A DNA stretch of 64,000 nt, taken from IMG/VR virus record IMGVR_UViG_3300036766_000184, positions 23,864 to 87,863 of that record. One strand, written 5' to 3'. Position 1 is the first letter of the stretch; every line of letters starts with the position of its first letter. Below are positions 3,002-64,000 of the stretch, piece by piece. The DNA comes from a virus. The translations under genes and the position numbers were made by a program. The notes below the pieces were generated by a model. The model made no database searches and was not told where the DNA came from. It was given only the letters and a program-made list of their open reading frames with translations.

Positions 3002-3030
3002 TTGACTCTCACGATGGATGTTGCTAAGCT
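3002..3030 (+). promoter_or_regulatory. Promoter of the free-standing HNH-like gene
   Basis: TTGACT, 17 bp, TAAGCT. Confidence 0.5.
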
Positions 3031-3074
3031 GCCCTCCATGGCCAGCGCTACTGGCGGCCATGGAGGAGTCAGCG

Positions 3075-3656: not shown

Positions 3657-3740
3657 GCCGTGCCGCTCCACGCCCCTCGTGGGCCGCCTAGCAGGAGGGC
3701 CTCGACGCCGCCAAGGCGAAGGCCAGGAGGAAGAGAGACC

Positions 3741-4436
3741 ATGGACACCGTGACAGCCCAGAAGCCCCTGAAGGCCCCGAAGGCTCCGAAGCCGCGCCCC
3801 GGCGATGACTACGACGACGCGCTGGCTGACTCCTCGGATGACGTCGAGCAGCGGGCCGCCGAAGCGCATCAGGCCCAGATGGGTTCGGCCCAGATGGACG
3901 ACGACCTCGATCTGTCCATCGTGGAAGATCGTGATGTCGAGATCGGGATGCCGCTGATCCCGCGCGCCCGCGTGGTCTATGTCGGGTCGCATCCCAAGAA
4001 GAACGAGCCGATCCGGGGCCAGATGGTCACCGAGTCGTGGGAAGCCGAGCCCGCCGTCGAGGCCGACCCGAAACGTGGGATCGCGGCTCGGCCGGCCGTC
4101 ATGGAGTACAGCAAGACGCCCACGACCGAGTCCGGGATCACGAGCTACAACTTCGCCATCCGGGACGAGCGGGGCCGAATCTTGACTCAGCGCCTGATGC
4201 CGCGGGACGCCAACCAGAAGGTCGCGGGCAAGCCGTGGGGGGTCTGTGAGCACCCCGAGCACCTGCGGTACTTCTTGCGCAAGCGGGATCGGGCCGGCGT
4301 GCGCGAGTACGAGGTCCTGATCCCCCAGGCGAAGCGGGCCGCGTTCGACAACTACGTGTCCGACAAGGAACGCGCGATCGGTCGCCACCACGCCCTCGCG
4401 GACTACTCGGCGGGGCTGCGTCAGACCCCTGAGTAA
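3741..4436 (+). CDS. Hypothetical protein in the virion operon
   Basis: Clean ORF, AGGAGG RBS, high GC3. Confidence 0.7.
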   Translation: MDTVTAQKPLKAPKAPKPRPGDDYDDALADSSDDVEQRAAEAHQAQMGSAQMDDDLDLSIVEDRDVEIGMPLIPRARVVYVGSHPKKNEPIRGQMVTESWEAEPAVEADPKRGIAARPAVMEYSKTPTTESGITSYNFAIRDERGRILTQRLMPRDANQKVAGKPWGVCEHPEHLRYFLRKRDRAGVREYEVLIPQAKRAAFDNYVSDKERAIGRHHALADYSAGLRQTPE

Positions 4437-8516: not shown

Positions 8517-8845
8517 TACTCGCGCTCGCCGTGCTGTTCGTGACCACGCCCGCGTGGGCGCTCGATGCCAAGGCCATCGCAACGACGATCACGGGCCAGT
8601 GCCCGGACGCCGAGTTTTCCTATCAAGGTGACGGGTCCTCGCTCGGCGCGCACACGGCGGCGAACGGCGACAAGGCCACGGGGCTCACATGGATCGCGTC
8701 ATCGACCTGTCCCACGAGACCGACACTGGCTGAGATTCAGGCGTGGGCCGCCGCGAAGCCAGCCCCGGAGAAGATCGCGGATCGTATCGAGGCTGCCAAG
8801 ACGTTGAACGACCTGAAGGTCATCCTCAAGGAGCGCCTGAAGTGA
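8507..8845 (+). CDS. Putative tail-fibre chaperone/adjunct (XkdW-like) with signal peptide
   Basis: PDAEFSY..D...LTW......RPTLAEIQAW pattern seen after such fibres; N-terminus MFVILALAVLFVTTPAWA. Confidence 0.65.
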   Translation: MFVILALAVLFVTTPAWALDAKAIATTITGQCPDAEFSYQGDGSSLGAHTAANGDKATGLTWIASSTCPTRPTLAEIQAWAAAKPAPEKIADRIEAAKTLNDLKVILKERLK

Positions 8846-9096
8846 TGAGAATGGTGCTCCTCTCGGCCCTCGCGGCTATCCTACTGGTCGTGGGTGCCGC
8901 GCAGGCGCAGGCCCCACCGGCGGGGTCGACGTGCGAAGGTAAGCTCGAAGAGCAGTCGATCATGCTGCAAGCGGTGTCGGCGGGGCGGATTCGGGCCGAG
9001 GCCGAGAGCGCGGTGGAGATCGCCCGACTCCGCCAGCAGGTGCGGGAACTGGCCAAGAAGCTGGACGACGTTGCCCGGACGGGCAAGGGGAACTGA
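8845..9096 (+). CDS. Small exported coiled-coil protein
   Basis: MRMVLLSALAAILLVVGAAQA signal peptide; C-terminal heptads. Confidence 0.65.
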   Translation: MRMVLLSALAAILLVVGAAQAQAPPAGSTCEGKLEEQSIMLQAVSAGRIRAEAESAVEIARLRQQVRELAKKLDDVARTGKGN

Positions 9097-12617: not shown

Positions 12618-12618
12618 T

Positions 12619-28651: not shown

Positions 28652-29088
28652 TCGCGTGGAAGTGGCTCCTGATTATCGACGCTGCAACGATGTTCATCAT
28701 CACCATGGGCACCACGCTCGGGGTCGTGATGTTGGAAGTCGGCAAGAACGAGCAGATCATGTGGCGCTCGATCATCGGCGCCACCCTCGGGGCCCTAGTG
28801 GCCTGCGCAAACCAGTTGCGGGCCCGGCTGGCCCTGCCCCCACCGACTAGCGGCATGATCGCAGCAGCGGTCGCGGCGACCGCTCCGATCGCTGCGCGCG
28901 TGGCTGCGGAAGCCGCGGCACCGGCAGCGGCGCTTGCGGCTGCCCCGGCGGCAGCCCGCGCAGCAGCTCCCGAAGCGGCTGCGATTGCCGCACCCGCCGC
29001 CGCCGCCGCTGCTGCGCCAGCGGCGGCGCGTGAGGCTGCGCCCGAAGCGGTCGCCATTGAAGTCGCCAAGATCCAGATCACCCAATGA
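28648..29088 (+). CDS. Two-TM protein with Ala/Pro-rich tail (holin-like)
   Basis: Two hydrophobic helices then AAAPAAA repeats. Confidence 0.55.
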   Translation: MIAWKWLLIIDAATMFIITMGTTLGVVMLEVGKNEQIMWRSIIGATLGALVACANQLRARLALPPPTSGMIAAAVAATAPIAARVAAEAAAPAAALAAAPAAARAAAPEAAAIAAPAAAAAAAPAAAREAAPEAVAIEVAKIQITQ

Positions 29089-29099
29089 CAGGAGAACGT

Positions 29100-29576
29100 A
29101 TGAAGAGCCTCAGCGTGTTCGCCCTCATCGCGATCGTCCTTACCGGCTGCGCCACCGGGGCTCCGATTAGCGGGAACCCGGCCCAGGATGCGTTCGCGAA
29201 CCGGCCGGTCAAGCTCTCGGGCGCGCTGTCCATCGAGGACGGATTGAAGGAAATGGCCTTCAACCTCGACAGCGCGATCACCGTGCAGGCGATCCCGGCC
29301 GACGACCCGCTCTCCGCGTGCGTGAAGGGGATCATGAAGGATCTCGGCATCGGGGATGTGAAGGACGTCGCGCCGTCGTTCGTCCCGAAGGAAGACACGC
29401 TCCTCGGCCGCGGCTCTGTCCTCTACATCCGCGCGCAGCAAGCGCAGCGCATGGCCGGTGCCGGCACGAAGCTCCCGATCTCGTGCGAGGCTTCAATCGG
29501 GAAGATCGTGATCGACGTCGCCCGGGCCAACGCGAAGAGCATGCCGGGCGGGGGGCTTTTGCCGGCCCTCAGGTAG
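29100..29576 (+). CDS. Lipoprotein (possible spanin component)
   Basis: MKSLSVFALIAIVLTG-C lipobox; AGGAG RBS. Confidence 0.7.
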   Translation: MKSLSVFALIAIVLTGCATGAPISGNPAQDAFANRPVKLSGALSIEDGLKEMAFNLDSAITVQAIPADDPLSACVKGIMKDLGIGDVKDVAPSFVPKEDTLLGRGSVLYIRAQQAQRMAGAGTKLPISCEASIGKIVIDVARANAKSMPGGGLLPALR

Positions 29577-40905: not shown

Positions 40906-41361
40906 ATGAGCCGCCCCCTCCAGATCTCCCGTGCGGACGCCAAGCGACTCGGGATCACGGTTGCCCGGCGGGCACGGGTCGTCACAGAGGTTGTTGGGGT
41001 CGGGGCGCGCCACGCCTACGCCTGCGTACCGTACACGGCCGAGGCATGGTCGAAGAACAAGGCGTGGCGGCACCGGAAAGACGGGCGGGTCTACCTGAGC
41101 ACGCCGGCACGGGAAGCCCGCGAGACCCTGACCGCGCTCCTGCGACAGCCCGCATGGCCGCAGCGAAAAACGTGGCTCGTGGTCGACGTCTACCTTGGCG
41201 ATCATCGGAGCGACCCGATCAACACCGTCGATGGTTTGGCCGATAGCGTGAAAATTGCCATCGGGGTTGACGACAGATTTTTCGCAATCAAGCATCTCGA
41301 CTGGTTCATCGACCCCGAAAATCCACGGATCGAAGTTCAGGTCTACCAGGACGCATCGTGA
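40906..41361 (+). CDS. RusA-like endodeoxyribonuclease
   Basis: SKNKAWR...RSDPINTVDGLADSVKIAIGVDDRFF...DPENPRIEVQV. Confidence 0.7.
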   Translation: MSRPLQISRADAKRLGITVARRARVVTEVVGVGARHAYACVPYTAEAWSKNKAWRHRKDGRVYLSTPAREARETLTALLRQPAWPQRKTWLVVDVYLGDHRSDPINTVDGLADSVKIAIGVDDRFFAIKHLDWFIDPENPRIEVQVYQDAS

Positions 41362-41392
41362 GCTGCCCGCGCGGGCAACAGGAGTGGTGGGT

Positions 41393-42628
41393 ATGCAGGT
41401 GATCGCGGAGCACGGACACAAGCCGATCAAGGCGTGGATTGACGGCGTAGAGATCGAAGATGCGGCCCGCCAGCAGCTTCACAATCTGGCGTCGTTGCCG
41501 TTCATCTACAAACACGTTGCGGTCATGCCGGACTGCCACTTCGGGATCGGCGCGACCGTGGGCTCGGTGATCGCGACGCGCGGCGCGGTCGTGCCAGCGG
41601 CTTGCGGGGTCGACATCGGTTGCGGGATGCTGTGGGCGCCGCTCGACGTGCGCGAGGAAGAACTCGACGGCCAGCGTCAAGCGCTCCACGACGCCATCGA
41701 CGGGTCGATCCCGAACGGCCGCACGAACAACGGCCAGGCCGGTGACGATGGCGCGTGGGGCACGCCGCCCAACTACATCTCGACCGCGTGGGGCCCGATG
41801 ATGGACGACCTCGCGTCAATCCAGGCGCGGCATCCGAAGATCACGCCGCGCGTCGAGCCGGTGCATCAACTCGGGACGCTCGGGACCGGCAACCACTTTG
41901 TCGAGGTGGTGGTCGATGAGACCGGCCGTGCCGGGATCATGCTGCATTCGGGGAGTCGCGGCATCGGCAATCTCATCGGACGCTACTTCATCGAGCGCGC
42001 CAAGCGCGCCATGGAGCGGTACTTCATCACGTTGCCCGACGCGGACCTAGCCTACCTGCCCGAGCTCGACAGTGCCGGCCAGCCCGACAAGGATTTCGTG
42101 GACTACATGGACGCGGTGTGGTGGGCGCAAGAGTTCGCCGCCAAGAACCGATCGCTCATGCTGCGCGCCGCTCTGGCGGTGATGGGGAGCGTGCTCGGGC
42201 GCGAGGTCAGCGTCGGCGGGCCCGGCGCGGTCCAATGTCACCACAACTACATCGCCCGTGAGAACCACTACGGGGACAACGTACTCGTGACGCGCAAGGG
42301 GGCCGTGCGGGCTCGCGTCGGCGATCTCGGGATCATCCCCGGCGCGATGGGACGTCAGAGCTTCATCGTCCGCGGCAAGGGCAACCCGGAGAGCTTCATG
42401 TCGTGTAGCCACGGGGCCGGGCGCGCGATGAGCCGAACGCAAGCGCGCGCGAGGTTCACCGTCGAGCAGCATCAGGCCGACACGGAGGGCATCGCGTGCC
42501 GCAAGGACGCGAGCGTGCTGGACGAAACGCCACGAGCGTACAAGTCGATTGAAGCGGTCATGGCCGCTCAGTCTGATCTGGTGGAGATCGTCCACACCCT
42601 GCGCGCCGTCGTGTGCGTGAAGGGATGA
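41393..42628 (+). CDS. rtcB: RtcB RNA ligase (3'-P or 2',3'-cyclic P to 5'-OH)
   Basis: MPDCH, GVDIGCG, GTGNHF, HSGSRG, HHNY, RKGA, SCSHGAGR, DETPRAYK. Confidence 0.97.
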   Translation: MQVIAEHGHKPIKAWIDGVEIEDAARQQLHNLASLPFIYKHVAVMPDCHFGIGATVGSVIATRGAVVPAACGVDIGCGMLWAPLDVREEELDGQRQALHDAIDGSIPNGRTNNGQAGDDGAWGTPPNYISTAWGPMMDDLASIQARHPKITPRVEPVHQLGTLGTGNHFVEVVVDETGRAGIMLHSGSRGIGNLIGRYFIERAKRAMERYFITLPDADLAYLPELDSAGQPDKDFVDYMDAVWWAQEFAAKNRSLMLRAALAVMGSVLGREVSVGGPGAVQCHHNYIARENHYGDNVLVTRKGAVRARVGDLGIIPGAMGRQSFIVRGKGNPESFMSCSHGAGRAMSRTQARARFTVEQHQADTEGIACRKDASVLDETPRAYKSIEAVMAAQSDLVEIVHTLRAVVCVKG

Positions 42629-42834
42629 AAACCATCGCCTTCGTGGTCCTCCTGTACGAATCAGGCGGCGCCCTCTCGGACGTCGCCATCCGCCACAATC
42701 GCGCCTCCGCGAAAGGGATCGGAGAAACGTGGACCGGCCGCTCGGACTGGCGCAAACAAGCCGACAAGCGCACCGTCACCGTGTCGGGGAACGAGGGGCG
42801 AGTCGCGCACGTGTACGAAAGGGAAATCGCATGA
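42625..42834 (+). CDS. Small hypothetical protein between the two ligases
   Basis: ATGA overlaps with both neighbours. Confidence 0.55.
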   Translation: MKTIAFVVLLYESGGALSDVAIRHNRASAKGIGETWTGRSDWRKQADKRTVTVSGNEGRVAHVYEREIA

Positions 42835-43790
42835 GCGGCGAGTCTACGTCCTGGCATTCCTATCCGTCGAGCTTCGCGCTGGGTCATCGTGCGCTCGCCG
42901 ATCTCCTACTCGATCCGGTACTCGTAGAGGAGAAGGTAGACGGCAGCCAGTTTTCGTGGGGACTCTTCCCCCGCGAAGACGATCCGTTCATGTGGGAGGG
43001 GTTGCGGTGCCGATCGAAGGGCGCGCAACTCAACCTCCTCGCGCCGGAGAAAATGTTCGAGCGCGCGATCGACACCGTCAAGGCGATGCGTGGTCAGCTC
43101 CAGCCCGGCTGGACCTATCGCGCGGAATATATGGCGAAGCCTCATCACAACGCGCTCACCTACGATCGCGTACCCGCCCAGCACCTCATCCTTTTCGACA
43201 TCAACCCAGGGCACGAGGAATATCTGTCGTGGGACGACAAGGCCCGAGAGGCTGAGCGGCTCGGGCTGGAGGTCGTGCCGCGGCTCTTCTACGGGATACT
43301 CACCGACGTCGAGATGCTGCGAGAGATGCTGAGCCGGGTGTCGATCCTCGGGGGCCAAACGATCGAGGGTGTCGTCATCAAGAATCCGGCGCGGTTCGGA
43401 CTCGACAAGAAGATCCTGATCGGAAAGTACGTCTCGGAGGCGTTCAAGGAAGTTCACGCGGCCGAGTGGAAAGCCGCCAACCCGAAGAGCGGCGACATCA
43501 TCGAGATGCTGATCCGCCAGTACGCATCACCGGCGCGCTGGCAAAAGGGACTCCAACACCTCCGAGAGGCCGGACAGATCACAGATAGCCCGAAGGACAT
43601 CGGCCTCCTCATGCGCGAGATCCCCGAGGACATCGCCAAGGAAGCCGAGGACGAGATCAAGGCGCGCCTCTGGTCGTGGGCGTGGCCGAAGATCCGACGT
43701 GGCGTCGCCGCTGGCCTCCCGAACTGGTACAAAGACTCGATTCTGCTCCCGAAGCAATTTGAGGAAGCCGCGCCAGAGGAGACCCAATGA
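42831..43790 (+). CDS. ATP-dependent RNA ligase (Rnl2-like nucleotidyltransferase)
   Basis: Motif I EEKVDGSQ, RAEY, LFDI, VVPRLF, IEGVVIKN, GKYVSEAFKE. Confidence 0.85.
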   Translation: MSGESTSWHSYPSSFALGHRALADLLLDPVLVEEKVDGSQFSWGLFPREDDPFMWEGLRCRSKGAQLNLLAPEKMFERAIDTVKAMRGQLQPGWTYRAEYMAKPHHNALTYDRVPAQHLILFDINPGHEEYLSWDDKAREAERLGLEVVPRLFYGILTDVEMLREMLSRVSILGGQTIEGVVIKNPARFGLDKKILIGKYVSEAFKEVHAAEWKAANPKSGDIIEMLIRQYASPARWQKGLQHLREAGQITDSPKDIGLLMREIPEDIAKEAEDEIKARLWSWAWPKIRRGVAAGLPNWYKDSILLPKQFEEAAPEETQ

Positions 43791-49930: not shown

Positions 49931-51118
49931 ATGCGTTTCCGCCTCTGTCCGACGCCCGAGCAAGTCATCGTCTTGGAGCGCCACTGCGCCGACGCGCGCT
50001 TCGTCTGGAATCTCGCCTTGGAGCAACGGATGCTACACCGAATCCGGCTGCGCCCGTCGCCAAGTTATGTCGAGCAGAGCCGCCAAATGACGGAGGCGCG
50101 CGCCGACAACCCGTGGCTGGCTGATGGCTCGCATGTGGTCCAGCAACAGGCGCTCCGCGACCTCGATCAAGCCTTCCGGTACTTCTTCAACGGCACCCAT
50201 GGTTATCCCAAGTGGCGGAAACGCGGCGCGAACGAAGGTCTCCGAATCGTCGCTGTGCAGCCGGACGACATCCGCCGCCTGTCCCGCCACAAGGGCGCGA
50301 TCCAAATTCCGAAGATCGGCACCGTAAAGTTCCGCTGGTCGCGCGACCCGGGCGAGCCCAAGTCTTTCCGCGTAACCCGCGACGCCGCCGGTCGCTGGCA
50401 TGTTGCGTTCGCGGTGATCCCGCCCGCCATCGAGGGCCCAGGCACCGGCGAGGTCGTCGGTCTCGACCGCGGGGTGGCCGTCTCGGTGATGACGAGTAAT
50501 GGCGAGGCGTTCTACGCGCCGACGCTGCGTCCGAAGGAATCCGAGCGGCTCATGAGATTGCAGCGCCGACTTTCGCACGCGATGCTAGGAAGCAATCGGC
50601 GCCATCGCGTAAAGCGATCCATCGCGATCGTGCGCGCCCGCGAAGTCCAGCGGCGAAAAGATTGGATCGAGAAAACGACGACCACGCTTGCGCGGCTCTA
50701 CGACATCGCAAAAGTCGAGGCGTTGAAGATCGGGAACATGACGCGCTCAGCGCACGGGACTGTCGCACAGCCCGGATGTCGGGTGCGCCAGAAAGCCGGC
50801 CTGAATCGCGCGATTCTCGCCCAAGGCTGGGGCTTGTTCGTCGCGCGGCTGGAACAGAAGATGCCGGGCCGCGTCGCCCGAGTCGACCCGCAATATACAA
50901 GTCAGCGGTGCAGCGAATGCGGGCACGTCGCCGCCGAATCGCGCGAGAGCCAAGCGCGATTCCGGTGCGTGTTCTGTGGATTCTCGCTGCACGCCGACCT
51001 CAACGCAGCACGCAATATCGCGGGCGGGCAGCCCGTGACAGCGCGGGGAGCGCGGATCAGTAAGCGCCGTGCCGTGAACCGCGAACCTCACCAGCGCCGC
51101 CGTTCCGAGGTGGCGTAG
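49931..51118 (+). CDS. tnpB: RNA-guided nuclease TnpB (IS200/IS605 family)
   Basis: FRLCPTPEQ, RFVWNLAL, RuvC GLDRG / VEAL / ADLNAARNI, Zn finger CSECG..CVFCG. Confidence 0.95.
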   Translation: MRFRLCPTPEQVIVLERHCADARFVWNLALEQRMLHRIRLRPSPSYVEQSRQMTEARADNPWLADGSHVVQQQALRDLDQAFRYFFNGTHGYPKWRKRGANEGLRIVAVQPDDIRRLSRHKGAIQIPKIGTVKFRWSRDPGEPKSFRVTRDAAGRWHVAFAVIPPAIEGPGTGEVVGLDRGVAVSVMTSNGEAFYAPTLRPKESERLMRLQRRLSHAMLGSNRRHRVKRSIAIVRAREVQRRKDWIEKTTTTLARLYDIAKVEALKIGNMTRSAHGTVAQPGCRVRQKAGLNRAILAQGWGLFVARLEQKMPGRVARVDPQYTSQRCSECGHVAAESRESQARFRCVFCGFSLHADLNAARNIAGGQPVTARGARISKRRAVNREPHQRRRSEVA

Positions 51119-55529: not shown

Positions 55530-56801
55530 CTAACCGGCGAGTTGTTGGGCACCGTCGTCGCCTGCCCAAAAAGTAGGGTCGATTCCTAGCTCATACATTT
55601 CGTGAATCACCACGACGAGATTGTGACACAGCACCTTGCACAGCGCCTCGTTCACCATCGCCACGGCCGTCTTGCTCCGCACAGCGTCACCAAACTTCCG
55701 CTTAATCATGGAGAACGTCGTCTCGACGTTGCTCCGCTTGTGATAGTGCTCTAGGAAGTCCGCGCGGCGATACATGAAGTAGCCGAACATCTTGTTCCAC
55801 ATGCCGCCCGTCAGTCCGGTGTCCGACGTGCGGTACGCGATGTACGGCGTCGCGCCGTGCGCGGCGACGGCCTCCGCGTTCTTCGCGCTGGCGTAGCCCT
55901 TGTCCGCCGACACTTCTGCGACGGCGAAGTTACGCGCCGTCGTGTCTACGAGCGCCGGTAGCTGGTGCGCGTCCGACGCGTTGCGCCCGTGAATCTCGAT
56001 CGCGGTGACGATGTTCGTCTTGACGCCGCACATGATGTGGACCTTGACCCAATCGTGCTCCTGCCGCTCCTGCCCGTACTTGTGATCGAACCAGCGGTGA
56101 AACTTGTTCGTCGTGAAGCCCGACGAGTCGGCGGCGAAGTCGACTTCCACGCCCTTCAACGGCAGGCTGCTCCGCACGATCAGATCGCGGAGGATCGGAG
56201 TGAGCGCCGGATTCTCTAGGTAGTTGAAGATCGAGTTGTAGTGGGGCACGCGGGACACGTAGCCGCGCCGCTGCGCCTCGCGCAGATCGGACATGAAGCG
56301 CCGTCCGCTCACCGTTGAGTAGACCTTGAACGCGCTGCTGAATACGGCGTCGGCCAGCGGCAGGCGTGGACGGCCACCACGAGGCGCGTGCGTCTCCGGC
56401 TCCTGAATCCCCCGGCACAGATCGCGGAGCAGGACTTGGAAGCGGTCTTTCTCGCCGGTCTGCGCGGCGTTGTACGCGGGCCACTGTTGCGGGTACGTGC
56501 GCTTGACCGTCTCCGTCAGCGTCAACGACCGCGTGAACGTGACCCGACCGTCCGCACGCTGCTCCCGCTCCATCACGAATCGGACGGCGTAGACGTGCTT
56601 GCAGTCAAGGCCGCGCGTCTCGTAGTCGGGGCACGTGCAGGTCGCCCCGCGCACTTTGCTCAGGATGACGCTGTAGCGCCCGTTGCCGCTCTGCGAAGGG
56701 ACGCGCCACGCGCCCTCGTGTAGCTCGATGCGGCTCCGCGCCGCGATCTCTAGCCCGCGCTGCTCCCGGCCGTCCGTCGTGTCCATCGTCCTGCCCTCCA
56801 T
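55530..56801 (-). CDS. DDE transposase (IS4/IS5 superfamily) with N-terminal SWIM finger
   Basis: CTCPDY...CKH; ADSSG, ADKGY, YHKRSNVETTFSMIK (Y-2-R-3-E-6-K). Confidence 0.93.
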   Translation of the reverse strand: MEGRTMDTTDGREQRGLEIAARSRIELHEGAWRVPSQSGNGRYSVILSKVRGATCTCPDYETRGLDCKHVYAVRFVMEREQRADGRVTFTRSLTLTETVKRTYPQQWPAYNAAQTGEKDRFQVLLRDLCRGIQEPETHAPRGGRPRLPLADAVFSSAFKVYSTVSGRRFMSDLREAQRRGYVSRVPHYNSIFNYLENPALTPILRDLIVRSSLPLKGVEVDFAADSSGFTTNKFHRWFDHKYGQERQEHDWVKVHIMCGVKTNIVTAIEIHGRNASDAHQLPALVDTTARNFAVAEVSADKGYASAKNAEAVAAHGATPYIAYRTSDTGLTGGMWNKMFGYFMYRRADFLEHYHKRSNVETTFSMIKRKFGDAVRSKTAVAMVNEALCKVLCHNLVVVIHEMYELGIDPTFWAGDDGAQQLAG

Positions 56802-56900
56802 GTGGTACTACTAATATATTACTTGAAAGGACATACAGGAGTCAACACCCCGGCAACGAATTACTTGACGTGATATATCAGCAAGGGATACAAGTAGCGT

Positions 56901-57083
56901 ATGGCAAAGGTGACGTTGACGGTCCAGGGCTTCCGGTGCGAGCGTTGCAATCACCAATGGACGCCGCGCGTCGCTGGCAAAGAGCCAAGAGTCTGCCCCA
57001 ACCCGAAGTGCCACAGCCCGTACTGGAACAGCCCGCGTCGGACCGAGAAGCGAAAGATCTTACCAAAGCGGAAACCTCGTTAG
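56901..57083 (+). CDS. Small zinc-ribbon passenger protein
   Basis: CERCNHQW.PR.....CPNPKCHSPYW; divergent from transposase. Confidence 0.7.
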   Translation: MAKVTLTVQGFRCERCNHQWTPRVAGKEPRVCPNPKCHSPYWNSPRRTEKRKILPKRKPR

Positions 57084-57177
57084 GCGCTACCGGATGAGGA
57101 CCCGTCAGACCTCGAACCCAACCCCTAGTAGTTTACTGTTGCGTCCGCAACAAGGCCCGGGTATAACTCGCGCCCAG

Positions 57178-58092
57178 ATGTCAGTGCTCGTGGAGCCCGG
57201 CAGCGTGAAGGGTCTCCGACTAGAGGCTGGCTTCTCGCTCGACGCCGATGCGGTGCTCTACAAGGGCGATTGCGTCGAGTTTCTCGGGAGCCTGCCCGAT
57301 GGCGTCGCGCGCCTCGTCGTCACATCACCGCCCTACAACATCGGCAAGCGGTACGAGCACCGGATGAAGTTCGATGACTACCTCGCGGATCAGGCGAAAG
57401 TGATCAAGGAGTGCGTCCGGGTACTCGCGGACGACGGCTCGATCTGCTGGCAGGTCGGAAACTTCGTGGATGACAACGAGATCATCCCGCTCGACGTGGC
57501 CCTCTGGCCGACGTTCCGAAGCCTCGGCCTCAAGATGAGGAATCGCATCATTTGGCACTTTGAGCACGGGCTACACTGTTCGCGGCGTTTCTCCGGTCGC
57601 TACGAGACGATTGTCTGGCTCACGAAGTCAGATGACTACGTGTTCAATCTCGATACAGTCCGCGTCCCGCAGAAATATCCCGGCAAGAAATACTTCAAGG
57701 GGCCGAAGCAGGGGCAGTTCTCCTGCAACCCGCTCGGGAAGAACCCCGGTGACCTGTGGATCATTCCGAACGTCAAGCACAACCACATCGAAAAAACAGC
57801 GCACCCCTGCCAATTCCCGGTGGAATTGGTAGAGCGCCTTGTGCTCTCGATGACGAATCCGGGCGATTGGGTACTCGATCCCTATATGGGGGTCGGGACG
57901 GCCCCTGCCGCCGCGATACGCCAAGGTCGCAAGGGCATGGGGGCAGAGCTGCTCCCCGAGTACGTTGCGCTTGCCCGCGAGCGCGTCACCGCCGCGAAGG
58001 ATGGAACGCTGCGGACTCGACCGATGGACCGGCCCGTGTACAAGCCGAGCGGTAGAGAGCAGGTGTCTCAGCGCCCACTCGCCGGAGTCTGA
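57178..58092 (+). CDS. Beta-class amino DNA methyltransferase (probably N4-cytosine)
   Basis: VTSPPYN, GKNPGDLW, HPCQFP, VLDPYMGVGT. Confidence 0.93.
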   Translation: MSVLVEPGSVKGLRLEAGFSLDADAVLYKGDCVEFLGSLPDGVARLVVTSPPYNIGKRYEHRMKFDDYLADQAKVIKECVRVLADDGSICWQVGNFVDDNEIIPLDVALWPTFRSLGLKMRNRIIWHFEHGLHCSRRFSGRYETIVWLTKSDDYVFNLDTVRVPQKYPGKKYFKGPKQGQFSCNPLGKNPGDLWIIPNVKHNHIEKTAHPCQFPVELVERLVLSMTNPGDWVLDPYMGVGTAPAAAIRQGRKGMGAELLPEYVALARERVTAAKDGTLRTRPMDRPVYKPSGREQVSQRPLAGV

Positions 58093-58099
58093 GTCGAAG

Positions 58100-58798
58100 G
58101 TGAAGATCGTAGACGTGTTCAGCCATCGGAATGGGCGGGACATTCTTGAGAGCCCGAATTTCAGTATGGCGTTTCACGAGTTCATGGAAGTCCTGAGCGG
58201 CCTACCTCCGTACCGCGCCGCCAAGCCGAAGAAGACATCATCGAATCACGTGATCGCTCCGGGCGCGATGAATCGCTGGCTCGACCAGGAGCTATGCATC
58301 GCGCGGGATTGGGACTGGCATCCCTTGGTAATCGACGCGGATCCAGACGACGAGACCCGCAAGAGCCAGCTACGTTCGGACTTCCGTAAGGCCCGCATCG
58401 AGGTAGAGGTACAGTTCGGGAACGTCGCGCGCTACGCCTATGACGTCTACAAAATGGCTATCTCGATGGCCCTTGGCCATTCCGACGTAGGGATCATGGT
58501 GGTCTGTACGAAGAAGTTCGCGGGCATCACGGGCGGGAACATCGCCTACTACGAACGCGCTGTTCGGGAATTGGAGCGGTCACGCCTGACGCTCATCGTG
58601 CCGCTCGTCGTCGTCGGCATCGAACCTGAGCAATGGGTATTCGACGCCTACCCCGGCGAGGATAAGGCTCCTGACGTCACGGCGAAGACCATCAATGCCG
58701 TCCGTAAGCAACGCGGGGCACCGCCCGTGCCTGAGGTTGAGACGGACGAAGAATTGTCACTGGGCGACATCCGGCGGATCGCCGCGCGCGTGGCGTGA
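58100..58798 (+). CDS. Type II restriction endonuclease, BglII/BstYI-like
   Basis: FSHRNG, SDFRKARIEVEVQFGN...YDVYK, DVGI, YYERAV, VPLVVVGI. Confidence 0.85.
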   Translation: MKIVDVFSHRNGRDILESPNFSMAFHEFMEVLSGLPPYRAAKPKKTSSNHVIAPGAMNRWLDQELCIARDWDWHPLVIDADPDDETRKSQLRSDFRKARIEVEVQFGNVARYAYDVYKMAISMALGHSDVGIMVVCTKKFAGITGGNIAYYERAVRELERSRLTLIVPLVVVGIEPEQWVFDAYPGEDKAPDVTAKTINAVRKQRGAPPVPEVETDEELSLGDIRRIAARVA

Positions 58799-59386: not shown

Positions 59387-60136
59387 ATGACGCGACTGTA
59401 CTCGACGCTGATGACCGTGTTCCTGTTGGCGACGATGAGTCTGTCGCCGCTCGGGATCGACCTGCTCGGGGCCTCGCCCGCCGTCGCCCAGAGCCAAAGC
59501 CAGCGCTTCTGGCTCCAGGCGCAAGGTGACAACGGCTCCAGCCTGACCTCTGGCCGGTGCCGCATCCTCAACGCCGGACTCCAGACGGATGCGACGATCT
59601 ACACGGACGGCACGCTCGGGACTGCGGCGACCAACCCGCTGACCCTCAACACGACCACGGGTCAGTGCGAGTTCTACATGAGCGGCTCGGCGGTCGACGT
59701 CGAGGTCTGGATCACGGACGGAACCTACAAGGGCTCGCTCGCGCGGATCTACAACTTCGGACGGACCAGTACCAAGAATGTCCTATTCGGTCGTGGGCAC
59801 GTCATGAAGTCCATCACGGTGCCGATGCCGGCCAGCGCCTCGTCAGCTACGGTGTCTTCTGGGATCACGCTTCCCGTCGGCGCGATGGTGACGCACGCGG
59901 TTGTGGAAACGACGACGGCGGGCACGTCCTCGACGGCCCTCGTCGGGTTCTCGCCCGGCGCCATCAACGCGATCTGCTCGGGCGCCTCGACGGCCGCCAT
60001 CGGGGTGGTCGATTGCAACCCGACCAAGTTCCTCGTGACGAGCGGGAACAACACGATCGCCTACACACCGCAGGGGCATGCCAGCGCGGGGTACATCACA
60101 GTCGTTTACCATCTCGGGTCGATCTCCGGGCCGTAG
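59387..60136 (+). CDS. Exported Ser/Thr-rich head-spike/decoration-like protein
   Basis: Signal peptide ending PAVA-Q; ATIYTD...TNPLTL...GQCEFY head-binding-like domain; TLPVGAMV...VETTTA...VG...GYITVVY jelly-roll-like domain. Confidence 0.6.
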   Translation: MTRLYSTLMTVFLLATMSLSPLGIDLLGASPAVAQSQSQRFWLQAQGDNGSSLTSGRCRILNAGLQTDATIYTDGTLGTAATNPLTLNTTTGQCEFYMSGSAVDVEVWITDGTYKGSLARIYNFGRTSTKNVLFGRGHVMKSITVPMPASASSATVSSGITLPVGAMVTHAVVETTTAGTSSTALVGFSPGAINAICSGASTAAIGVVDCNPTKFLVTSGNNTIAYTPQGHASAGYITVVYHLGSISGP

Positions 60137-60142
60137 TCGCGC

Positions 60143-60172
60143 TTGACGGCGGCACCGGGACCAGCGTAGATT
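60143..60172 (+). promoter_or_regulatory. Promoter of the RNA island
   Basis: TTGACG, 18 bp, TAGATT. Confidence 0.55.
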
Positions 60173-60332
60173 CAGCGGGCGACCTCGTGATGGGGTCGCC
60201 CGAGTTCTTTTCCACTTGAATAGATACCGTCGCTAGTCGCGTCGAGGCGGATACTCGCCCGAGCCCAAGGTCGCAACGGGCTGGGCACAGAGGCTGCCGA
60301 TCGCCACGGATCAGTGCGGCGCGAACCGCGAA

Positions 60333-60448
60333 CCGCTGCATGTGGAGCCCGAAACATAACCACGCGGGCGCATCCTCTGCTGGACCAGATCACCTGGCAG
60401 GGGTGTCACCCCTCGGGCCAGTGTGGGATGGGAGTAGGGACGCAGCGG
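60333..60448 (+). ncRNA. Candidate structured RNA
   Basis: ccgctgc/gcagcgg closing stem, gcccga/tcgggc, catcctctgc/gcaggggtg inner stem. Confidence 0.4.
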
Positions 60449-60487
60449 AACAAATCTACTGCCCGCGCGGGCAGTGAAATGACACAC

Positions 60488-60565
60488 GTTGACGTTCGGC
60501 TAGTCAGGTTAAGCCCCGAGACCGTGGCTCTCGGTACACCGGTTCAACTCCGGTACGTCAACCCA
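60488..60565 (+). tRNA. tRNA-His (GUG) with encoded G-1 and CCA
   Basis: Full cloverleaf: G-1:C73, acceptor ttgacgt/acgtcaa, D ggct/agcc, anticodon cgaga-ccGTGgc-tctcg, T accgg-ttcaact-ccggt. Confidence 0.9.
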
Positions 60566-60566
60566 T

Positions 60567-60688
60567 CTCGCCCAGCGAGACGCGAGCGATGCTACGAAGT
60601 CAGTCTGAGGCTAGTCAGTCGCCGATGAAAGTCGGAGGACAGAGCCTCACGGCAGAAGATCGGCGTGGCCCGTGGTCGGCTGGGCGAG
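60567..60688 (+). ncRNA. Rod-like RNA with central bubble
   Basis: ctcgcccagc/gctgggcgag, tgaggct/agcctca, ccga/tcgg. Confidence 0.55.
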
Positions 60689-60731
60689 TTCAATTCACAG
60701 ATAGAGCAGTCGATGTGATAATGTCGGAGGC

Positions 60732-61145
60732 ATGGAGAGGTTAGCGTATAACGCCTACATGCGCCCTTATCTGCGCACTCGATACCGAGAACGCAGGATT
60801 CGTATTATTGCGGCCCTGGGCGGTAAATGTGTGGTGTGCTGTGCCGTCAAGGGGCTCGAAGTAGATCACGTTGATGCAGCAAGCAAGGGGAAGGACTCTC
60901 GGCGTCTCTGGACAGCTTCCGAGGCTATTTTGCAACGCGAGATAGATAAATGTCAGCTTCTATGCCGTCGATGTCACGCTATCAAAACGCTATCTGAGCG
61001 AGGTCAGGTACCGGCTCGCGGTACACATGGGACGCTGTCTGCATACCGATACTGTAAATGTTCTGAATGCCGATCGGCTAACACGCTCTGGCATCGTATG
61101 AAATATGGTCAAGCCGCTCACTCGCCAGAGCAGCGACAGGATTAA
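60732..61145 (+). CDS. HNH endonuclease next to tRNA
   Basis: LGGKCVVC..LEVDHVD...EIDKCQLLCRRCH..KT; HGT..Y..CKC..C tail; AT-richer than flanks. Confidence 0.88.
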   Translation: MERLAYNAYMRPYLRTRYRERRIRIIAALGGKCVVCCAVKGLEVDHVDAASKGKDSRRLWTASEAILQREIDKCQLLCRRCHAIKTLSERGQVPARGTHGTLSAYRYCKCSECRSANTLWHRMKYGQAAHSPEQRQD

Positions 61146-61201
61146 TCCAGCCCACCACTTTCCTCTTGCATTCCTCGTTCGATCTCTCGTACATTGTGTC
61201 G

Positions 61202-61477
61202 GTGAGTTCACGTAGATATTCCATCCTGCTCGCCCTCCTCGCCTGGACGCTCTACCTCGGCGGTAGCGGACGGAACGTAATGTTCTCCGGGATGACTGAG
61301 TGCGTGTCCGACACGTACAGATGTCTTGCTCCGGGCCACACGATCTGGTCCTACGATGCGAGCCGATTGACACCAGGCCAGTTCCGTCAGTTCTCCGGCG
61401 GGCTCGTTATCAAGACCTCCAAGGGTAAGGTGATCGTCCATCACGGGCCGTACCAGTTGGTCGGGGAGAAGCCGTGA
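61202..61477 (+). CDS. Small exported/membrane protein
   Basis: Hydrophobic N-terminus and a Cys pair; promoter TTGCAT-18-TACATT at 61166-61195. Confidence 0.5.
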   Translation: MSSRRYSILLALLAWTLYLGGSGRNVMFSGMTECVSDTYRCLAPGHTIWSYDASRLTPGQFRQFSGGLVIKTSKGKVIVHHGPYQLVGEKP

Positions 61478-61973
61478 CGTGCGGGCGATGCGGCAGCGCG
61501 GGCCATACCGAATGCCTGTCGACGCCACCGCATGTTGACCACTGGACGGATGCGAGGCCCACGTCGCCGCCCGACTGTGCTCGGTACGGCGAGTTCATGC
61601 CTAACTGTGGGCAGTCCGAGGGCGAAGATTCGTGTTGGGCGTGCGGACTACCAGCAGCGCAGCACCACCTATCGACGCGTCCGATCCCGATGTTCAAGGA
61701 GAAGCCGTGAACCTCCCGGACGGCCTGACCGCGCCGCAGTTCAAGGCCGTCGAGGCCCTGTTAGAGCAAGACTACGGGCTGACGCTCGCCAGCGTCCCGC
61801 CCAAGGTCGGCGCCGCGCTCATCGCAAAGGGCTGGGCCGAGCCGCAGGTGGTGACCATGGGGCACGACAGGCTCGGGCCGATCACCGTCAACGCCTACCT
61901 GCTCACGATCCGGGGCCACATGCTCTACTGCGAGTGGGCCGCGAAGCAGCGGTCGGAGATCGACGCGCCGTGA
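61474..61973 (+). CDS. Two small hypothetical genes (61474-61710 Cys-rich; 61707-61973)
   Basis: GTGA overlaps, GGAG RBSs. Confidence 0.55.
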
Positions 61974-62350
61974 CCCGCCACCTCGTGTCGGGCTTCGTCG
62001 TGCTTAGCGCCTTGGTGGCTATGGCGTGGGTGGTGTCGGGCGCGATGGTCGCGCACGACGACAACATCCGCCAAGAAACGCGGGCGCTGCTAGAAACCAA
62101 GGCGCAGCAGGAGTTGTTAGCCCGGCGTATTTTCTGGCGCTGGTGGCTCGTGCAGACGAATGAGAGTACGGGCGGCGCGCCGTATATCCATACCATCGAA
62201 GTCTTCGCTGAGGATCATCTGGAGGCGTGTGAACAGAGGCGTTCGGAGATGTCGGAACATGCGGCGGTGACAGCGAAGACGGTCGGTCCTCATTACATTG
62301 AGCGCGTGAGTCACTGTCGCGGCGCCCATCTCGTCGAGCACAAGCGATGA
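61970..62350 (+). CDS. Membrane-anchored Cys-pair protein
   Basis: N-terminal TM; WWLVQ...F....EACEQ...HC. Confidence 0.55.
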   Translation: MTRHLVSGFVVLSALVAMAWVVSGAMVAHDDNIRQETRALLETKAQQELLARRIFWRWWLVQTNESTGGAPYIHTIEVFAEDHLEACEQRRSEMSEHAAVTAKTVGPHYIERVSHCRGAHLVEHKR

Positions 62351-63666
62351 CGCACCGCCTCGTCCTCGCCTGCTCGTTCTTGGTCCTGAGCGCCGTCCCC
62401 TTCCCGGTCAGCCTCGCGAGCTTCGGCCGCACGAACCCCATGGAGGCATGGCCGACCGTGCTCTTTGTGGTCCTGGGCCTGCTCGGGCTCACGGTCACGA
62501 CATTCCGGCCGGTGCCGCACGCCTTTGTCGCCTTCTACGCCTGGGCGCTCGTCCGGGTTCTGCTCGGCGGCTTCGACAACCGGGCGACGTGGTGCTTGTT
62601 GGTCCTCGTGGCCGGGATCGGGGTCTTCCGGCTGATGGCCGAGTTGCCCGCCGGGCACGACGTGGTGCTCGGCATCACGATCGCGGGCGTCGTGGCGCTC
62701 CAGGTGGCCCTCGGCATCCTGGACGTGATGAAGATCAACCCCTGGATCGCGGTCACCTACCCGGACATGGTCGGCAAGCCGCACGGGCTGCTCTATCACC
62801 CGAACCACTACGGGCTCTACCTCGCGCTGGCCCTGCCGGTCCTGATCGTGCTCACGGGGCATGCCTGCCGCTTGATGGCGGGATGGCGACGGTGGGGCAC
62901 GATCGCGGCCGGGAGCTTCGTCGTCTCGGCGGTCATCACGCTCCTGATCGCGTCCGGGTCTCGCATCGCGCTCGGTGGGCTGGTGATCGTTCTCGCGTGG
63001 GCGGTCTCGATGGCGGGGCGCGCGTTGGCACGACTCGTACCGGACGACCGGCGCTGGACGTGGGCGGCTTGCTCGGTCTTTGCGGCAGCGCTCGCGGTCG
63101 TCATCTGGCGGTTCGTCGGCCGACAGCAGATCGACTCTCTCGGCGGCCGGACCCCTATGTGGACGGTCGGGGCCGTGGAACTCTCGACGTGGACGTGGCC
63201 GTCCTTCCTGTTCGGCGGCGGCTTCGGCTCGTGGGCTACGTGGGCAACGCATCCGGGCGGGCGGCTCCGCGGCCTTGGGGTCCCCGAACTCGGCATCCCG
63301 CCCCAGAACGCCTTCTCGGGGTGGTGGACCGAGGCGCACAACATCGGGATGCAGGTGACCTTTGAGATCGGGATCGTTGGGCTCCTGCTCGGGGCCTGGG
63401 TCGTGTGGGCGCTGATCCGGCTGGTAGGTGGGGGTTTCGCTGGCAAGCGTCACCACTTCCTTGTGCAACTGAAGAACGATTCAGCGTGGACGGTGTCGGA
63501 CACCATCGCCGCGACGCGAACATCTGCATTCACGCTCTGGCCCGAAGCCTGGGCTATCGTGCTCCTGATCGGCCTCATGGCGATGCACTTCACCCTCGTC
63601 TTCCACCACGCGGCGCTGGCGGTCGTGACCATCACGGCGGCGGCGAGGCTGTGGGCGCGGCGATAA
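62347..63666 (+). CDS. O-antigen ligase family (WaaL/Wzy_C/O-OTase-like) polytopic membrane protein
   Basis: About 11-12 hydrophobic helices; HPNHYG, SGSR, GRTPMW, FGGGFGSW, EAHN...FEIGIVG. Confidence 0.88.
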   Translation: MTHRLVLACSFLVLSAVPFPVSLASFGRTNPMEAWPTVLFVVLGLLGLTVTTFRPVPHAFVAFYAWALVRVLLGGFDNRATWCLLVLVAGIGVFRLMAELPAGHDVVLGITIAGVVALQVALGILDVMKINPWIAVTYPDMVGKPHGLLYHPNHYGLYLALALPVLIVLTGHACRLMAGWRRWGTIAAGSFVVSAVITLLIASGSRIALGGLVIVLAWAVSMAGRALARLVPDDRRWTWAACSVFAAALAVVIWRFVGRQQIDSLGGRTPMWTVGAVELSTWTWPSFLFGGGFGSWATWATHPGGRLRGLGVPELGIPPQNAFSGWWTEAHNIGMQVTFEIGIVGLLLGAWVVWALIRLVGGGFAGKRHHFLVQLKNDSAWTVSDTIAATRTSAFTLWPEAWAIVLLIGLMAMHFTLVFHHAALAVVTITAAARLWARR

Positions 63667-63667: not shown

Positions 63668-64000
63668 ATGGAGACCGATATGGCAGGCCAGCGGAAGCGC
63701 ATCACGTCGATCACATCCGCCGAGCGCGACCGATTCGGGGAATGGGTTGAGCGCTGGACCGCCATTGGGCTCTCGACGGCTGAGGCAGATCGCGATCTGT
63801 TCGAGCGCGCGGCCCGCCGGTGTTACCGCTTCGCTGATCTTACCGAACCGCGCGCGATTGTGTGGGTCGAATCGCCACTCGTTGCGTGTATCGCTGGGCC
63901 GCTCGCTGCGATAGAGATAGCCGTTAGACGGGGCTCGGCGGTGGACTCTGCGGTGGACTCGGCGGTGCGCTAGGCGGTGCGCTCGGCGGTGGACTTGGCG
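63668..64000 (+). pseudogene. DUF6745-like protein with SAVx repeats and an in-frame TAG; runs off window
   Basis: W..IGLST..ADR...CYRFA....P..IVWVESP; 12-bp repeats continue in frame past TAG at 63971. Confidence 0.6.

Follow-up and report, generated by a model that had tools for sequence, protein, structure and literature searches.

A conserved phage gene pair links an exported, capsid-decoration-like protein to a divergent Wzy_C-superfamily membrane enzyme

The 64,000-nucleotide stretch of viral DNA analyzed here (the window) encodes an exported protein, P0006, and a membrane enzyme that together form a newly recognized, conserved gene pair. In the relatives examined, the enzyme always adjoins a secreted, capsid-decoration-like protein, so that it may attach host sugars to P0006. 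We tentatively favor, with slightly less than even confidence, a dedicated O-oligosaccharyltransferase/acceptor pair that would use a host lipid-linked glycan, and we infer both glycosylation of P0006 and its incorporation into the virion. The features concerned are:

7362-8516 (+): fiber-like protein P0005 in the tail region, 384 aa, with a Sec-type signal peptide, 6 Cys and 27% Ser+Thr
59387-60136 (+): exported partner P0006, 249 aa, with a Sec-type signal peptide (residues ~1-34/36), two β-sandwich domains, four conserved Cys and 24% Ser+Thr
60176-60202 (+): intrinsic-terminator-like hairpin just after the P0006 gene, a 12-bp stem followed by a T-run (consensus scan only)
60489-60565 (+): tRNA-His(GTG) (ARAGORN), within the 2.2-kb insert separating the pair
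60732-61145 (+): 137-aa ORF of low GC3 (0.49) with CxxC...H...CxxCH spacing, HNH-endonuclease-like
61970-62350 (+): 126-aa ORF with one N-terminal hydrophobic helix
62347-63666 (+): divergent Wzy_C/WaaL-PglL-fold membrane enzyme, 439 aa with ~12 TM helices (motifs, profiles, AF2/Foldseek)

The first 155 nt of the contig are repeated by its last 155 nt with one mismatch. The genome is therefore closed, and the enzyme, the exported protein and the fiber-like gene are all phage genes. Phage-type terminase, portal and capsid genes are present on the same contig.

The enzyme reading frame is open (GC3 0.90) and carries the motifs PHG..HPN (residues 145-153), SGSR (203-206), GGR (266-268), GGGFGSW (290-296), AHN...Q...E.G..G (330-345) and FHH (419-421). 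Pfam Wzy_C aligns with it over profile positions 3-147 of 149 at 17.6 bits (E 0.0035), which falls below the gathering cutoff of 31.7 bits; a six-frame search gave 20.7 bits. Family membership consequently rests on evidence from relatives, profile and fold. Wzy_C is matched by 21 of the 36 aligned relatives at E ≤ 0.001 (best 3.8e-23), and the profile of these 36 matches the solved PglL-type OTase 9rmk_A (6.1e-19) and WaaL 7tpg_B (2.6e-13). The alignment to 9rmk_A is near full length (profile positions 13-389 of 402, N-terminal-half motif included) and places the invariant N153 on PglL N180, whereas only the C-terminal half aligns with WaaL. Profiles of the close subfamily only (A1, A3) had no match among solved structures at E ≤ 10. 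In Foldseek, the AF2 model (pLDDT 88.6, pTM 0.90) is closest to WaaL 7tpg_B (E 3.5e-4, TM 0.50/0.54), followed by the SEDS lipid-II polymerases FtsW and RodA. It shares with WaaL a build of ~12 TM helices and the placement of Arg/His motifs in a large loop connecting late helices. As the first-pass annotation had proposed, the enzyme belongs to the Wzy_C (WaaL/PglL/Wzy) superfamily, in which it is highly diverged. Judged from the helices of the model, the conserved motifs would lie in loops facing the periplasm.

Differences from the characterized enzymes are nevertheless clear. The PglL_A motif (PF15864) is matched neither by the 36 relatives (E ≤ 0.001) nor by the window enzyme (E ≤ 0.01), and the phage protein has 439 aa as compared with the 610-aa chain of 9rmk_A. 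WaaL is matched with a TM-score of only ~0.5, and the phage gene lies outside an LPS core cluster. The equivalents of PglL R224, R298 and H349 are R206, R268 and H331. The AHN His motif (residues 330-332) and the Arg motifs (R206 of SGSR, R268 of GGR) had been noted at first reading as conserved motifs of the O-antigen-ligase family; they are indeed present, but their conservation holds in part only. Among 13 close relatives, R268 is the sole invariant residue of the motif His/Arg residues; H331 is kept in 8/13 and replaced by M, F or Y in the other five, and R206 is kept in nine and missing in four. Two of the three WaaL/PglL-essential residues thus vary within the subfamily.

Some members of the subfamily do without the catalytic His and one Arg, so their chemistry may not be that of WaaL/PglL. 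This variation, the resemblance of the fold to FtsW and RodA after WaaL, and the placement of the pair for late expression would all suit a cooperation of the two proteins other than as enzyme and substrate, with P0006 as a periplasmic regulator or subunit, or with the membrane protein sequestering or consuming Und-PP-linked intermediates and so weakening the envelope for lysis or host takeover. We consider such a role improbable: none of R268, the GxGxG motif, N332, Q336, E340 and the HPN loop varies among six lineages, as expected of a working glycan-transfer site, and we found no precedent for such a role.

The exported partner has an ATG start preceded by an RBS and a GC3 of 0.88. Its N-terminus comprises a basic n-region, a hydrophobic core and an AxA|Q-type cleavage site, a signal-peptide pattern (called, as for P0005, by inspection and a simple script) that is kept in 12/12 aligned homologues and in two further ones. 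Three Cys and Thr residues 54, 67, 70, 79 and 161 are invariant among the homologues, and the fourth Cys (C58) is nearly so. The AF2 model (pLDDT 80.8) shows two β-sandwiches, one of which is a jelly-roll domain of ~120 aa that matches the Pam1 capsid chain 7eel_H (E 3.7e-5) and the KHP40 cement protein 7dou_4 (E 4.5e-4) in Foldseek, with target TM-scores of ~0.54-0.55. P0006 is not a pilin and is without known sequon; we regard it as a candidate glycan acceptor and capsid-decoration-like protein.

In 8/8 evaluable loci from five distinct phages (L004, L005, L006, L008, L009, L092, L093 and L094), the gene immediately upstream of the enzyme homologue encodes, in the same orientation, a homologue of P0006; for L007, the ninth locus found, sequence on that side is lacking. 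The paired proteins are only 25-45% identical between loci, and the neighboring genes differ. In three IMG/VR phages (L092-L094) the pair directly follows the major capsid gene, with a stop/start overlap (TGATG) in L094 and a spacing of 2 nt in L092, whereas it precedes TerL in L004 and L006 and is located elsewhere in the window. Because order and strand are kept despite the differing positions and flanks, the pair behaves as a unit under joint selection. An O-OTase gene neighbored by that of its acceptor is the rule in characterized systems, in which 21 of 31 pglL homologues adjoin pilin genes (PMC3643930), and the upstream, same-strand position of the exported-protein gene recalls the PilA-TfpO and ComP-PglL pairs.

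All loci come from related phages, with TerL, MCP and RtcB in common at 30-63% identity, and adjacency could partly reflect inherited gene order. Taken further, the two genes might not be functionally coupled at all, the exported protein being an independent moron such as a superinfection-exclusion or surface protein. The window itself could be read in this way, as 2.2 kb separate its two genes and the terminator-like hairpin closes the first. We give this explanation little credence, since order and strand persist while genomic position and flanking genes change. The 137-aa ORF was probably inserted recently between the two genes; as it has no Pfam match at E ≤ 0.01, its HNH label comes from reading the sequence only. 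The 126-aa ORF shares bases with both of its neighbors, its start with the stop codon of ORF 61632-61973 and its stop with the enzyme ATG (ATGA). A homologue is present in L008/L009 (tblastn E 7e-9), and the Pfam search found no family for it.

The serious rival to an enzyme-acceptor pair is envelope-glycan remodeling, which we judge unlikely but well above the two explanations already discussed. Here, the enzyme would be a Wzy-type polymerase or WaaL-type ligase acting on lipid-linked polysaccharide, in some lineages with a phage Wzz-like co-polymerase, and exported P0006 a periplasmic accessory or glycan-binding factor. Changes to the infected cell's O-antigen or EPS would mask the receptor, exclude other phages or keep progeny off debris. 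The enzyme's own function is not readable from its family, as the NCBIfam matches of the 36 distant relatives are functionally diverse (PEP_O_lig_1 6, IctB 4, TfpM 4, repeat-unit polymerase 3, EpaQ 3).

Precedents lend weight to remodeling. The phage Wzy_C proteins found in the literature are all treated as O-antigen polymerases or ligases and associated with serotype conversion, namely D3 Wzy-β (by its annotation and in PMC4815439) and VarioGold p25 (PMC9658991); p25 also has small TM proteins and a protein with a signal peptide as neighbors. A horizontally acquired locus, opvAB, is reported to alter O-antigen chain length and to confer phage resistance (PMC4652898). In addition, a TM-coiled-coil-TM protein (G000, 2967-3890) scores 0.96 to Wzz clusters (ESM Atlas). 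This Wzz-like gene lies on the enzyme's genome, has a homologue in L006 and hints at polysaccharide polymerization. However, it is absent from genomes G001-G003, and sequence comparison gives only weak evidence that it belongs to Wzz (1/5 members at E 0.014), with no solved-structure match. The enzyme has no detectable similarity to D3 Wzy-β (hhalign probability <1%), and a tblastn search with the enzyme over 50,697 phage records gave no match. Both D3 and VarioGold are temperate, with integrases annotated in D3 and given in the VarioGold gene table, whereas neither the closed genome nor a 62.7-kb relative yielded an integrase or resolvase. The VarioGold cluster is described as moron-like (PMC9658991), while in L092-L094 the pair forms part of the late head operon, where a conversion gene would be out of place. 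The absence of integrase and resolvase and the location within the head gene cluster favor late lytic expression over prophage conversion. Together with the lack of similarity to D3 Wzy-β, they weaken the simpler alternative of the first-pass annotation, surface conversion, in its lysogenic form. Remodeling also leaves the constant adjacency of an exported cement-like protein unexplained, as would a lipid A-core acceptor of the WaaL type.

The earlier proposal had combined the enzyme with two Ser/Thr-rich proteins bearing signal peptides. P0006 and P0005 both show such peptides, and their Ser+Thr contents stand against a median of 10.9% across 92 ORFs. P0005 (GC3 0.84; N-terminus ending ..TVSA|G) carries two '...GTGAS...G.(G/S)TWG' repeats, and its C-terminal third matches a putative tail fiber of Pelagibacter phage HTVC026P (36% identity, E 6e-5). 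Its homologue in L094 has the signal peptide and N-terminal 115 aa in common (35% identity, E 2e-15), but no signal peptide was seen among the fiber-region ORFs of the pair-bearing L092. The link of the fiber-like protein to the enzyme is thus weak, and the expected co-occurrence of enzyme and exported protein is strongly borne out for P0006 rather than for the fiber. Overall, the virion-glycosylation interpretation is partly supported.

In mycobacteriophages, virion proteins are reportedly glycosylated in the cytoplasm by soluble glycosyltransferases that the phage encodes. The glycosylation proposed here would likewise be phage-directed but would proceed by en bloc transfer at the periplasmic face. 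GT1/GT2 glycosyltransferase genes were searched in G000-G003 and none was found, so any glycan must be host-derived. To our knowledge, known phage cement proteins are cytoplasmic; P0006 shares their jelly-roll domain and, in L092-L094, the gene position after the major capsid gene, but differs in its conserved Sec signal peptide and Cys, its second domain and its obligate membrane-enzyme neighbor. It also differs from the acceptors of PglL-type pairs, being a phage-encoded two-β-sandwich protein with a predicted cleavable signal, sometimes within a head gene cluster, and not a type IV pilin.

In the enzyme-acceptor reading, P0006 would be synthesized late in infection as a pre-protein that Sec exports; after cleavage at AxA|Q, it would undergo oxidative folding in the periplasm. 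With its putative periplasmic-loop residues (the HPN loop, R268, GxGxG, (H)N-x3-Q-x3-E and H420), the enzyme would take a host-made undecaprenyl-pyrophosphate-linked glycan and transfer it en bloc to Ser/Thr of P0006, analogous to the PilA-TfpO and ComP-PglL/PglS acceptor-enzyme pairs. The modified P0006, cement-like and occupying the post-capsid slot in relatives, may then bind particles once holin lesions mix cytoplasm and periplasm.

The gene pair considered here encodes an exported protein, P0006, and a divergent membrane protein of the Wzy_C family with the WaaL/PglL fold, referred to as the enzyme. Both genes are carried by a tailed phage. Positions are given in the window or in the whole IMG/VR record (G000).

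Window 1949-2992: major head protein (phrog_334 1.6e-66; Pfam Phage_capsid_3 8.8e-36)
Window 7362-8516, + strand: P0005, fibre-like protein, 384 aa
Window 12619-27240: single ORF of 4873 aa
Window 59387-60136, + strand: P0006, predicted exported protein, 249 aa
Window 62347-63666, + strand: enzyme, 439 aa
G000 8868-10523: terminase
G000 16311-18572: portal

The record is 87,863 bp long (the window corresponds to bases 23864-87863) and has a GC content of ~65%. Its first 155 nt are repeated at its end (window 63846-64000) with one mismatch, so that the sequence closes on itself and looks like a closed genome of ~87.7 kb, although IMG/VR labels it linear. The ORF beginning after the enzyme gene runs on into the start of the record, and the repeat falls within a gene encoding SAVD/SAVR-type repeats and a DUF6745 domain (E 3.2e-20). 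A scenario in which a tRNA-His marks a prophage junction and the enzyme gene belongs to the host was dropped, as the contig is self-closing and related phages carry the pair between phage genes. The closest isolates for the major head protein are Bcep22-like and related podophages (32-35% identity), and the 4873-aa ORF would fit the giant virion proteins that Bcep22-like podophages encode. The region is present in a single sequencing run (DNA, sediment metagenome), which is probably its source, and no RNA sequencing run is listed as holding the window stretch. The best matches of a transposase scan (63-70% identity, mostly Acidobacteriota MAGs) are too distant to point to a particular host.

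With two transposase-like genes (window 49931-51118, phrog_506; G000 7627-8829, TnpB-like by eye) and a DDE element, the phage genome is unusually IS-rich. A gene for a SWIM + DDE transposase (- strand) lies at window 55530-58798, just upstream of the P0006 gene, as do genes for an N6/N4 DNA methylase and for a restriction endonuclease of BglII-like type. RNA-repair genes are recurrent in this phage group (window 41255-43790, and 13805-15304 and 2822-3313 in the related metagenome loci L006 and L004, respectively); the set comprises an RNA ligase (phrog_548), a protein with a HAD_SAK_2 domain and RtcB, which is 63% identical between window and L006. A 163-aa ORF with a lipoprotein-type N-terminus (..LTGC; window 29085-29576) has no Pfam match and could encode a spanin or an exclusion lipoprotein.

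The enzyme (GC3 0.90) covers positions 3-147 of the 149 of Pfam Wzy_C (PF04932) at 17.6 bits (E 0.0035), below the gathering score of 31.7 bits; a six-frame search gave 20.7 bits. A word-indexed search of 5.8 billion proteins yielded only three relatives (82%, 37% and 37% identity), and a profile search of 1.84 billion representatives retrieved 176 at E ≤ 0.001, 11 of them at E ≤ 1e-30. From these 176, the top full-length matches and a spread of weaker ones were aligned with the query (36 sequences), of which 21 matched Wzy_C at E ≤ 0.001 (best 3.8e-23). Against solved structures, the profile of this alignment retrieved 9rmk_A, annotated ‘Oligosaccharyltransferase’ (6.1e-19, profile positions 13-389), and WaaL 7tpg_B (2.6e-13, C-terminal half only). 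WaaL 7tpg_B was also the top Foldseek match (E 3.5e-4, TM 0.50/0.54) of the AF2 model of the enzyme (pLDDT 88.6, pTM 0.90), followed by the SEDS proteins FtsW and RodA. The topology read from the helices with the help of the positive-inside rule has 12 TM segments, both termini in the cytoplasm and the conserved motifs in periplasmic loops.

Membership of the Wzy_C superfamily is thus secure. Sequence does not reveal whether the enzyme is a ligase, a protein OTase or a polymerase, because the close-subfamily profiles A1 and A3 hit no solved structure among the PDB sequences, the PglL_A motif (PF15864) is found neither in the enzyme (E ≤ 0.01) nor in the 36 relatives (E ≤ 0.001), and distant relatives scatter over NCBIfam models of differing function. 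The enzyme itself belongs to no NCBIfam family, whereas P0005 and P0006 have sub-threshold NCBIfam matches only (E 0.03-0.1). PHROGs holds no match for any of the three proteins, and tblastn of the enzyme and P0006 against 50,697 phage records returned none. Viral-contig scans with profiles A1, A4 and A5 and a genome-contig scan with profile A1 found nothing either.

The first-pass annotation had read an AHN His motif and conserved Arg motifs of the O-antigen-ligase family in the enzyme. Both are present in the window copy, where R206, R268 and H331 correspond to the Arg/Arg/His triad of E. coli WaaL (R215, R288, H338) and of Neisseria meningitidis PglL (R224, R298, H349), but conservation does not extend to the whole triad. 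Only R268 is invariant in the subfamily; H331 is kept in 8/13 and R206 in 9/13 sequences, and each in 5/8 of the syntenic set. Residues invariant in the eight syntenic-locus sequences include P145, H151, P152, N153, G156, R268, W272, G290 and G294, as well as W296, A330, N332, Q336, F339, E340, G342, G345 and H420. In the profile alignment, the residues counted in 9rmk_A were Q178, N180, R224, R298, P313, G316, G318, H349, H400, E404 and P406, which are the residues given for N. meningitidis PglL in the residue list of Schulz et al. 2013 (PMC3643930). Because of this match, 9rmk_A is taken to be a PglL. In the profile alignment, the invariant H151-P152-N153 of the subfamily stands opposite PglL Q178-R179-N180; of the PglL_B-region residues Q178 and N180 given in the same list (PMC3643930), it shares the Asn and not the Gln.

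P0006 (GC3 0.88) is preceded by an RBS; its N-terminus is basic and is followed by a hydrophobic core and a site of the AxA|Q type. Signal peptides were read by eye and with a simple script; the Sec-type pattern (basic n-region, hydrophobic core, small residues at -3/-1) is kept despite sequence drift in all 12 aligned homologues, and also in the IMG/VR loci L092 and L094. P0006 is therefore predicted to be Sec-exported; its residues 1-35 have an AF2 pLDDT below 50. Ser and Thr make up 24% of the mature part, as compared to 27% in P0005 and a median of 10.9% over 92 ORFs (script). Eleven relatives were found in the set of 5.8 billion proteins. C94, C197, C210 and several Thr are invariant in the 12-sequence alignment, and C58 nearly so. 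Acceptor sites could be T161 and the invariant Thr 67, 70 and 79, the latter three in a largely loop-like stretch that separates C58 from C94.

The AF2 model of P0006 (pLDDT 80.8) consists of two β-sandwich domains. One of them matches the Pam1 capsid chain 7eel_H (E 3.7e-5, target TM 0.54) and the KHP40 cement protein 7dou_4 (E 4.5e-4, target TM 0.55), such folds being common. Further matches of this domain are to numerous small Caudovirales proteins that are uncharacterised and to fibre/spike domains. The nearest ESM Atlas cluster (score 0.93) has 597 members and is 91% viral.

Scans with enzyme-family profiles identified nine related phage loci (six from metagenomes, three from IMG/VR), which were then searched with the window proteins. 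In all eight evaluable loci, the gene immediately upstream of the enzyme homologue, on the same strand, encodes a P0006 homologue; L007 was left out of the count as its sequence starts inside the enzyme gene. The check proposed earlier, co-occurrence of Wzy_C genes with signal-peptide-bearing fibres, thus turns out positive for the signal-peptide-bearing P0006.

Position of the gene pair in the evaluable loci (locus; P0006 homologue; enzyme homologue)
L004; 532-1128; 1255-2400
L005; 1975-2571; 2698-3843
L006; 8767-9483; 10001-10954
L008; 6621-7259; 8152-9162
L009; 8404-9042; 9951-10442
L092; 6982-7944; 7947-9140
L093; 3661-4374; 4680-5648
L094; 6883-7812; 7812-9005

The nine loci are not independent: L004/L005 and L008/L009 look like the same phages from replicate-sample assemblies, L092 and L093 are near-identical and L094 is their close relative, so that the loci amount to five distinct sequences from about four clades, the window not counted. 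The pair proteins are 25-45% identical to those of the window. In L092-L094, whose MCP is 56% identical to that of the window, the gene order is terminase, portal, scaffold-like gene, MCP, P0006 homologue, enzyme homologue and a homologue of window 3660-4436. The stop codon of the P0006 homologue overlaps the enzyme ATG in L094 (TGATG), and the two genes are 2 nt apart in L092. A P0006 homologue directly downstream of the major capsid gene is specific to L092, L093 and L094 and is not seen in the window, L004-L006 or L008/L009. L004 and L006 have the large terminase gene within a few small ORFs after the pair; in L006 this gene (11235-13808) contains Hint and LAGLIDADG domains, i.e. an intein. 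In the window the pair is 2.2 kb apart. The gap is occupied by a terminator-like hairpin, by tRNA-His, by an HNH-like ORF of low GC3 and by small ORFs, the final one overlapping the enzyme start. An HNH/EndoVII-like endonuclease gene with a Lar-like part (window 3018-3656) directly follows the window capsid gene, in the slot of the pair in L092-L094.

The internal order of the pair is constant, while its genomic position differs between lineages. Since the order is kept as position and neighbours change, P0006 and the enzyme are most simply seen as a functional pair. That the two genes lie together with no functional coupling is accordingly very improbable. Equally improbable is a joint role other than that of enzyme and substrate.

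The arrangement differs from that of WaaL genes, which are found in the LPS core cluster: the enzyme gene is flanked by phage genes in a closed phage genome. In bacteria, genes for an O-OTase and its acceptor are known to occur as pairs, and the PglL-type feature of an exported-protein gene beside the enzyme gene is found in the 8/8 evaluable loci and, 2.2 kb apart, in the window. P0006 may accordingly be the acceptor. A loose parallel is offered by VarioGold, whose Wzy_C gene is described as a neighbour of genes for TM proteins and for a protein with a signal peptide and is interpreted there as a prophage moron (PMC9658991).

The main rival reading is remodelling of the envelope glycan by the enzyme. 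Phage-borne Wzy_C genes are known as seroconverting polymerases, D3 Wzy-beta being the classic one, and D3 Wzy-beta was the named comparator for the enzyme besides the two solved structures (9rmk_A, 7tpg_B). However, similarity to D3 Wzy-beta is not significant (hhalign probability 0.2-0.5%), and a D3-type temperate integration module was not found: tyrosine integrase (PF00589) and serine recombinase (PF00239) were detected in 0/4 records, with controls detected, in a set of the closed G000, three related phage records (G001, 80% complete, and the fragments G002 and G003) and including a 62.7-kb relative. These results speak against seroconversion of the D3 type, although they are compatible with other kinds of lysogeny, and we regard envelope remodelling as a serious but rather unlikely rival.

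GT1 and GT2 glycosyltransferase genes are not present in G000-G003, and any glycan must therefore come from the host in lipid-linked form, in keeping with an en bloc transferase. Outside the window, G000 2967-3890 encodes a 307-aa protein with a Wzz-like layout by reading (TM-coiled-coil-TM, periplasmic coiled coil) and a homologue in L006. It scores 0.96 to Wzz clusters in the ESM Atlas, its Pfam Wzz match is weak (1/5 members, E 0.014) and its solved-structure matches include no Wzz. Because the sequence tests are weak and the gene is missing from G001-G003, it is treated as an optional companion outside the core module. An 80-aa one-TM ORF overlaps its start, and this layout (G000 2728-3890) recalls the opvAB chain-length locus of Salmonella.

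A signal-bearing tail fibre had also been proposed. The N-terminus of P0005 has a basic and hydrophobic stretch ending in TVSA|G, and a homologue in L094, which follows the same upstream gene, shares the signal peptide, a Cys just after the cleavage site and the first 115 residues (35% identity, E 2e-15). The corresponding L092 ORFs have no signal peptide. The fibre signal is therefore partly conserved but not tied to the enzyme. Four consecutive Ser/Thr-rich ORFs with Sec signals, several of them Cys-rich, also lie between terminase and portal (G000 10849-15785), an unusual place for exported proteins in a tailed phage.

G000 10849-11208: signal-peptide, Ser/Thr- and Cys-rich ORF, 119 aa (script)
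G000 11154-13388: signal-peptide, Ser/Thr- and Cys-rich ORF, ~725 aa (script)
G000 13372-14166: signal-peptide ORF, ~246 aa (by eye)
G000 14163-15785: signal-peptide ORF (by eye), 540 aa, DUF1996 (3.8e-21)

A twin-arginine-type signal (..RRRFLALLG..) occurs in an ORF of L008 (3862-4236) and L009 (5689-6063), so relatives encode exported proteins beyond the pair.

By analogy with bacterial systems, we give a somewhat less than even chance to the reading that the pair is an exported acceptor with its dedicated WaaL/PglL-family transferase. Both would be made together late in infection, like PilA-TfpO or ComP-PglL, and the transferase would use the host Und-PP-linked glycan. The product may decorate the capsid, as is suggested by its cement-like fold and by the place of its gene behind the capsid gene in L092-L094. 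Decoration proteins of other phages bind finished capsids; as P0006 would be exported, decoration would be possible only after the holin opens the inner membrane. More broadly, peripheral virion parts (the cement-like protein of the capsid and, for some members of the group, one resembling a tail fibre) might be made as secretory pre-proteins, undergo periplasmic disulfide formation and en bloc O-glycosylation by the phage WaaL/PglL-like enzyme and be loaded at holin opening, so that virions leave coated with host surface sugar. This extended scheme is doubtful, and its virion step is the weakest link of the proposal.

Phage virion glycosylation is known only via cytoplasmic glycosyltransferases. 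Searches of titles and abstracts gave no report of an exported virion protein whose gene is paired with a Wzy_C gene in a phage, or of Sec-exported structural proteins of tailed phages, which is not proof of absence; nor did these searches yield a head gene cluster in which a WaaL/PglL-like gene is coupled to one for a cement-like protein with a signal peptide.

Two cloned genes would suffice to put this unusual hypothesis to a direct test. If the two proteins are enzyme and acceptor, they would form the first system for protein glycosylation of the oligosaccharyltransferase type (periplasmic, en bloc) found in a phage, and a compact two-gene system with a non-pilin acceptor would be of glycoengineering interest. 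If the product reaches the capsid, it would follow that particles of tailed phages can take up components that matured outside the cytoplasm and can bear host glycans, which would matter for their adsorption, immune recognition and environmental stability.
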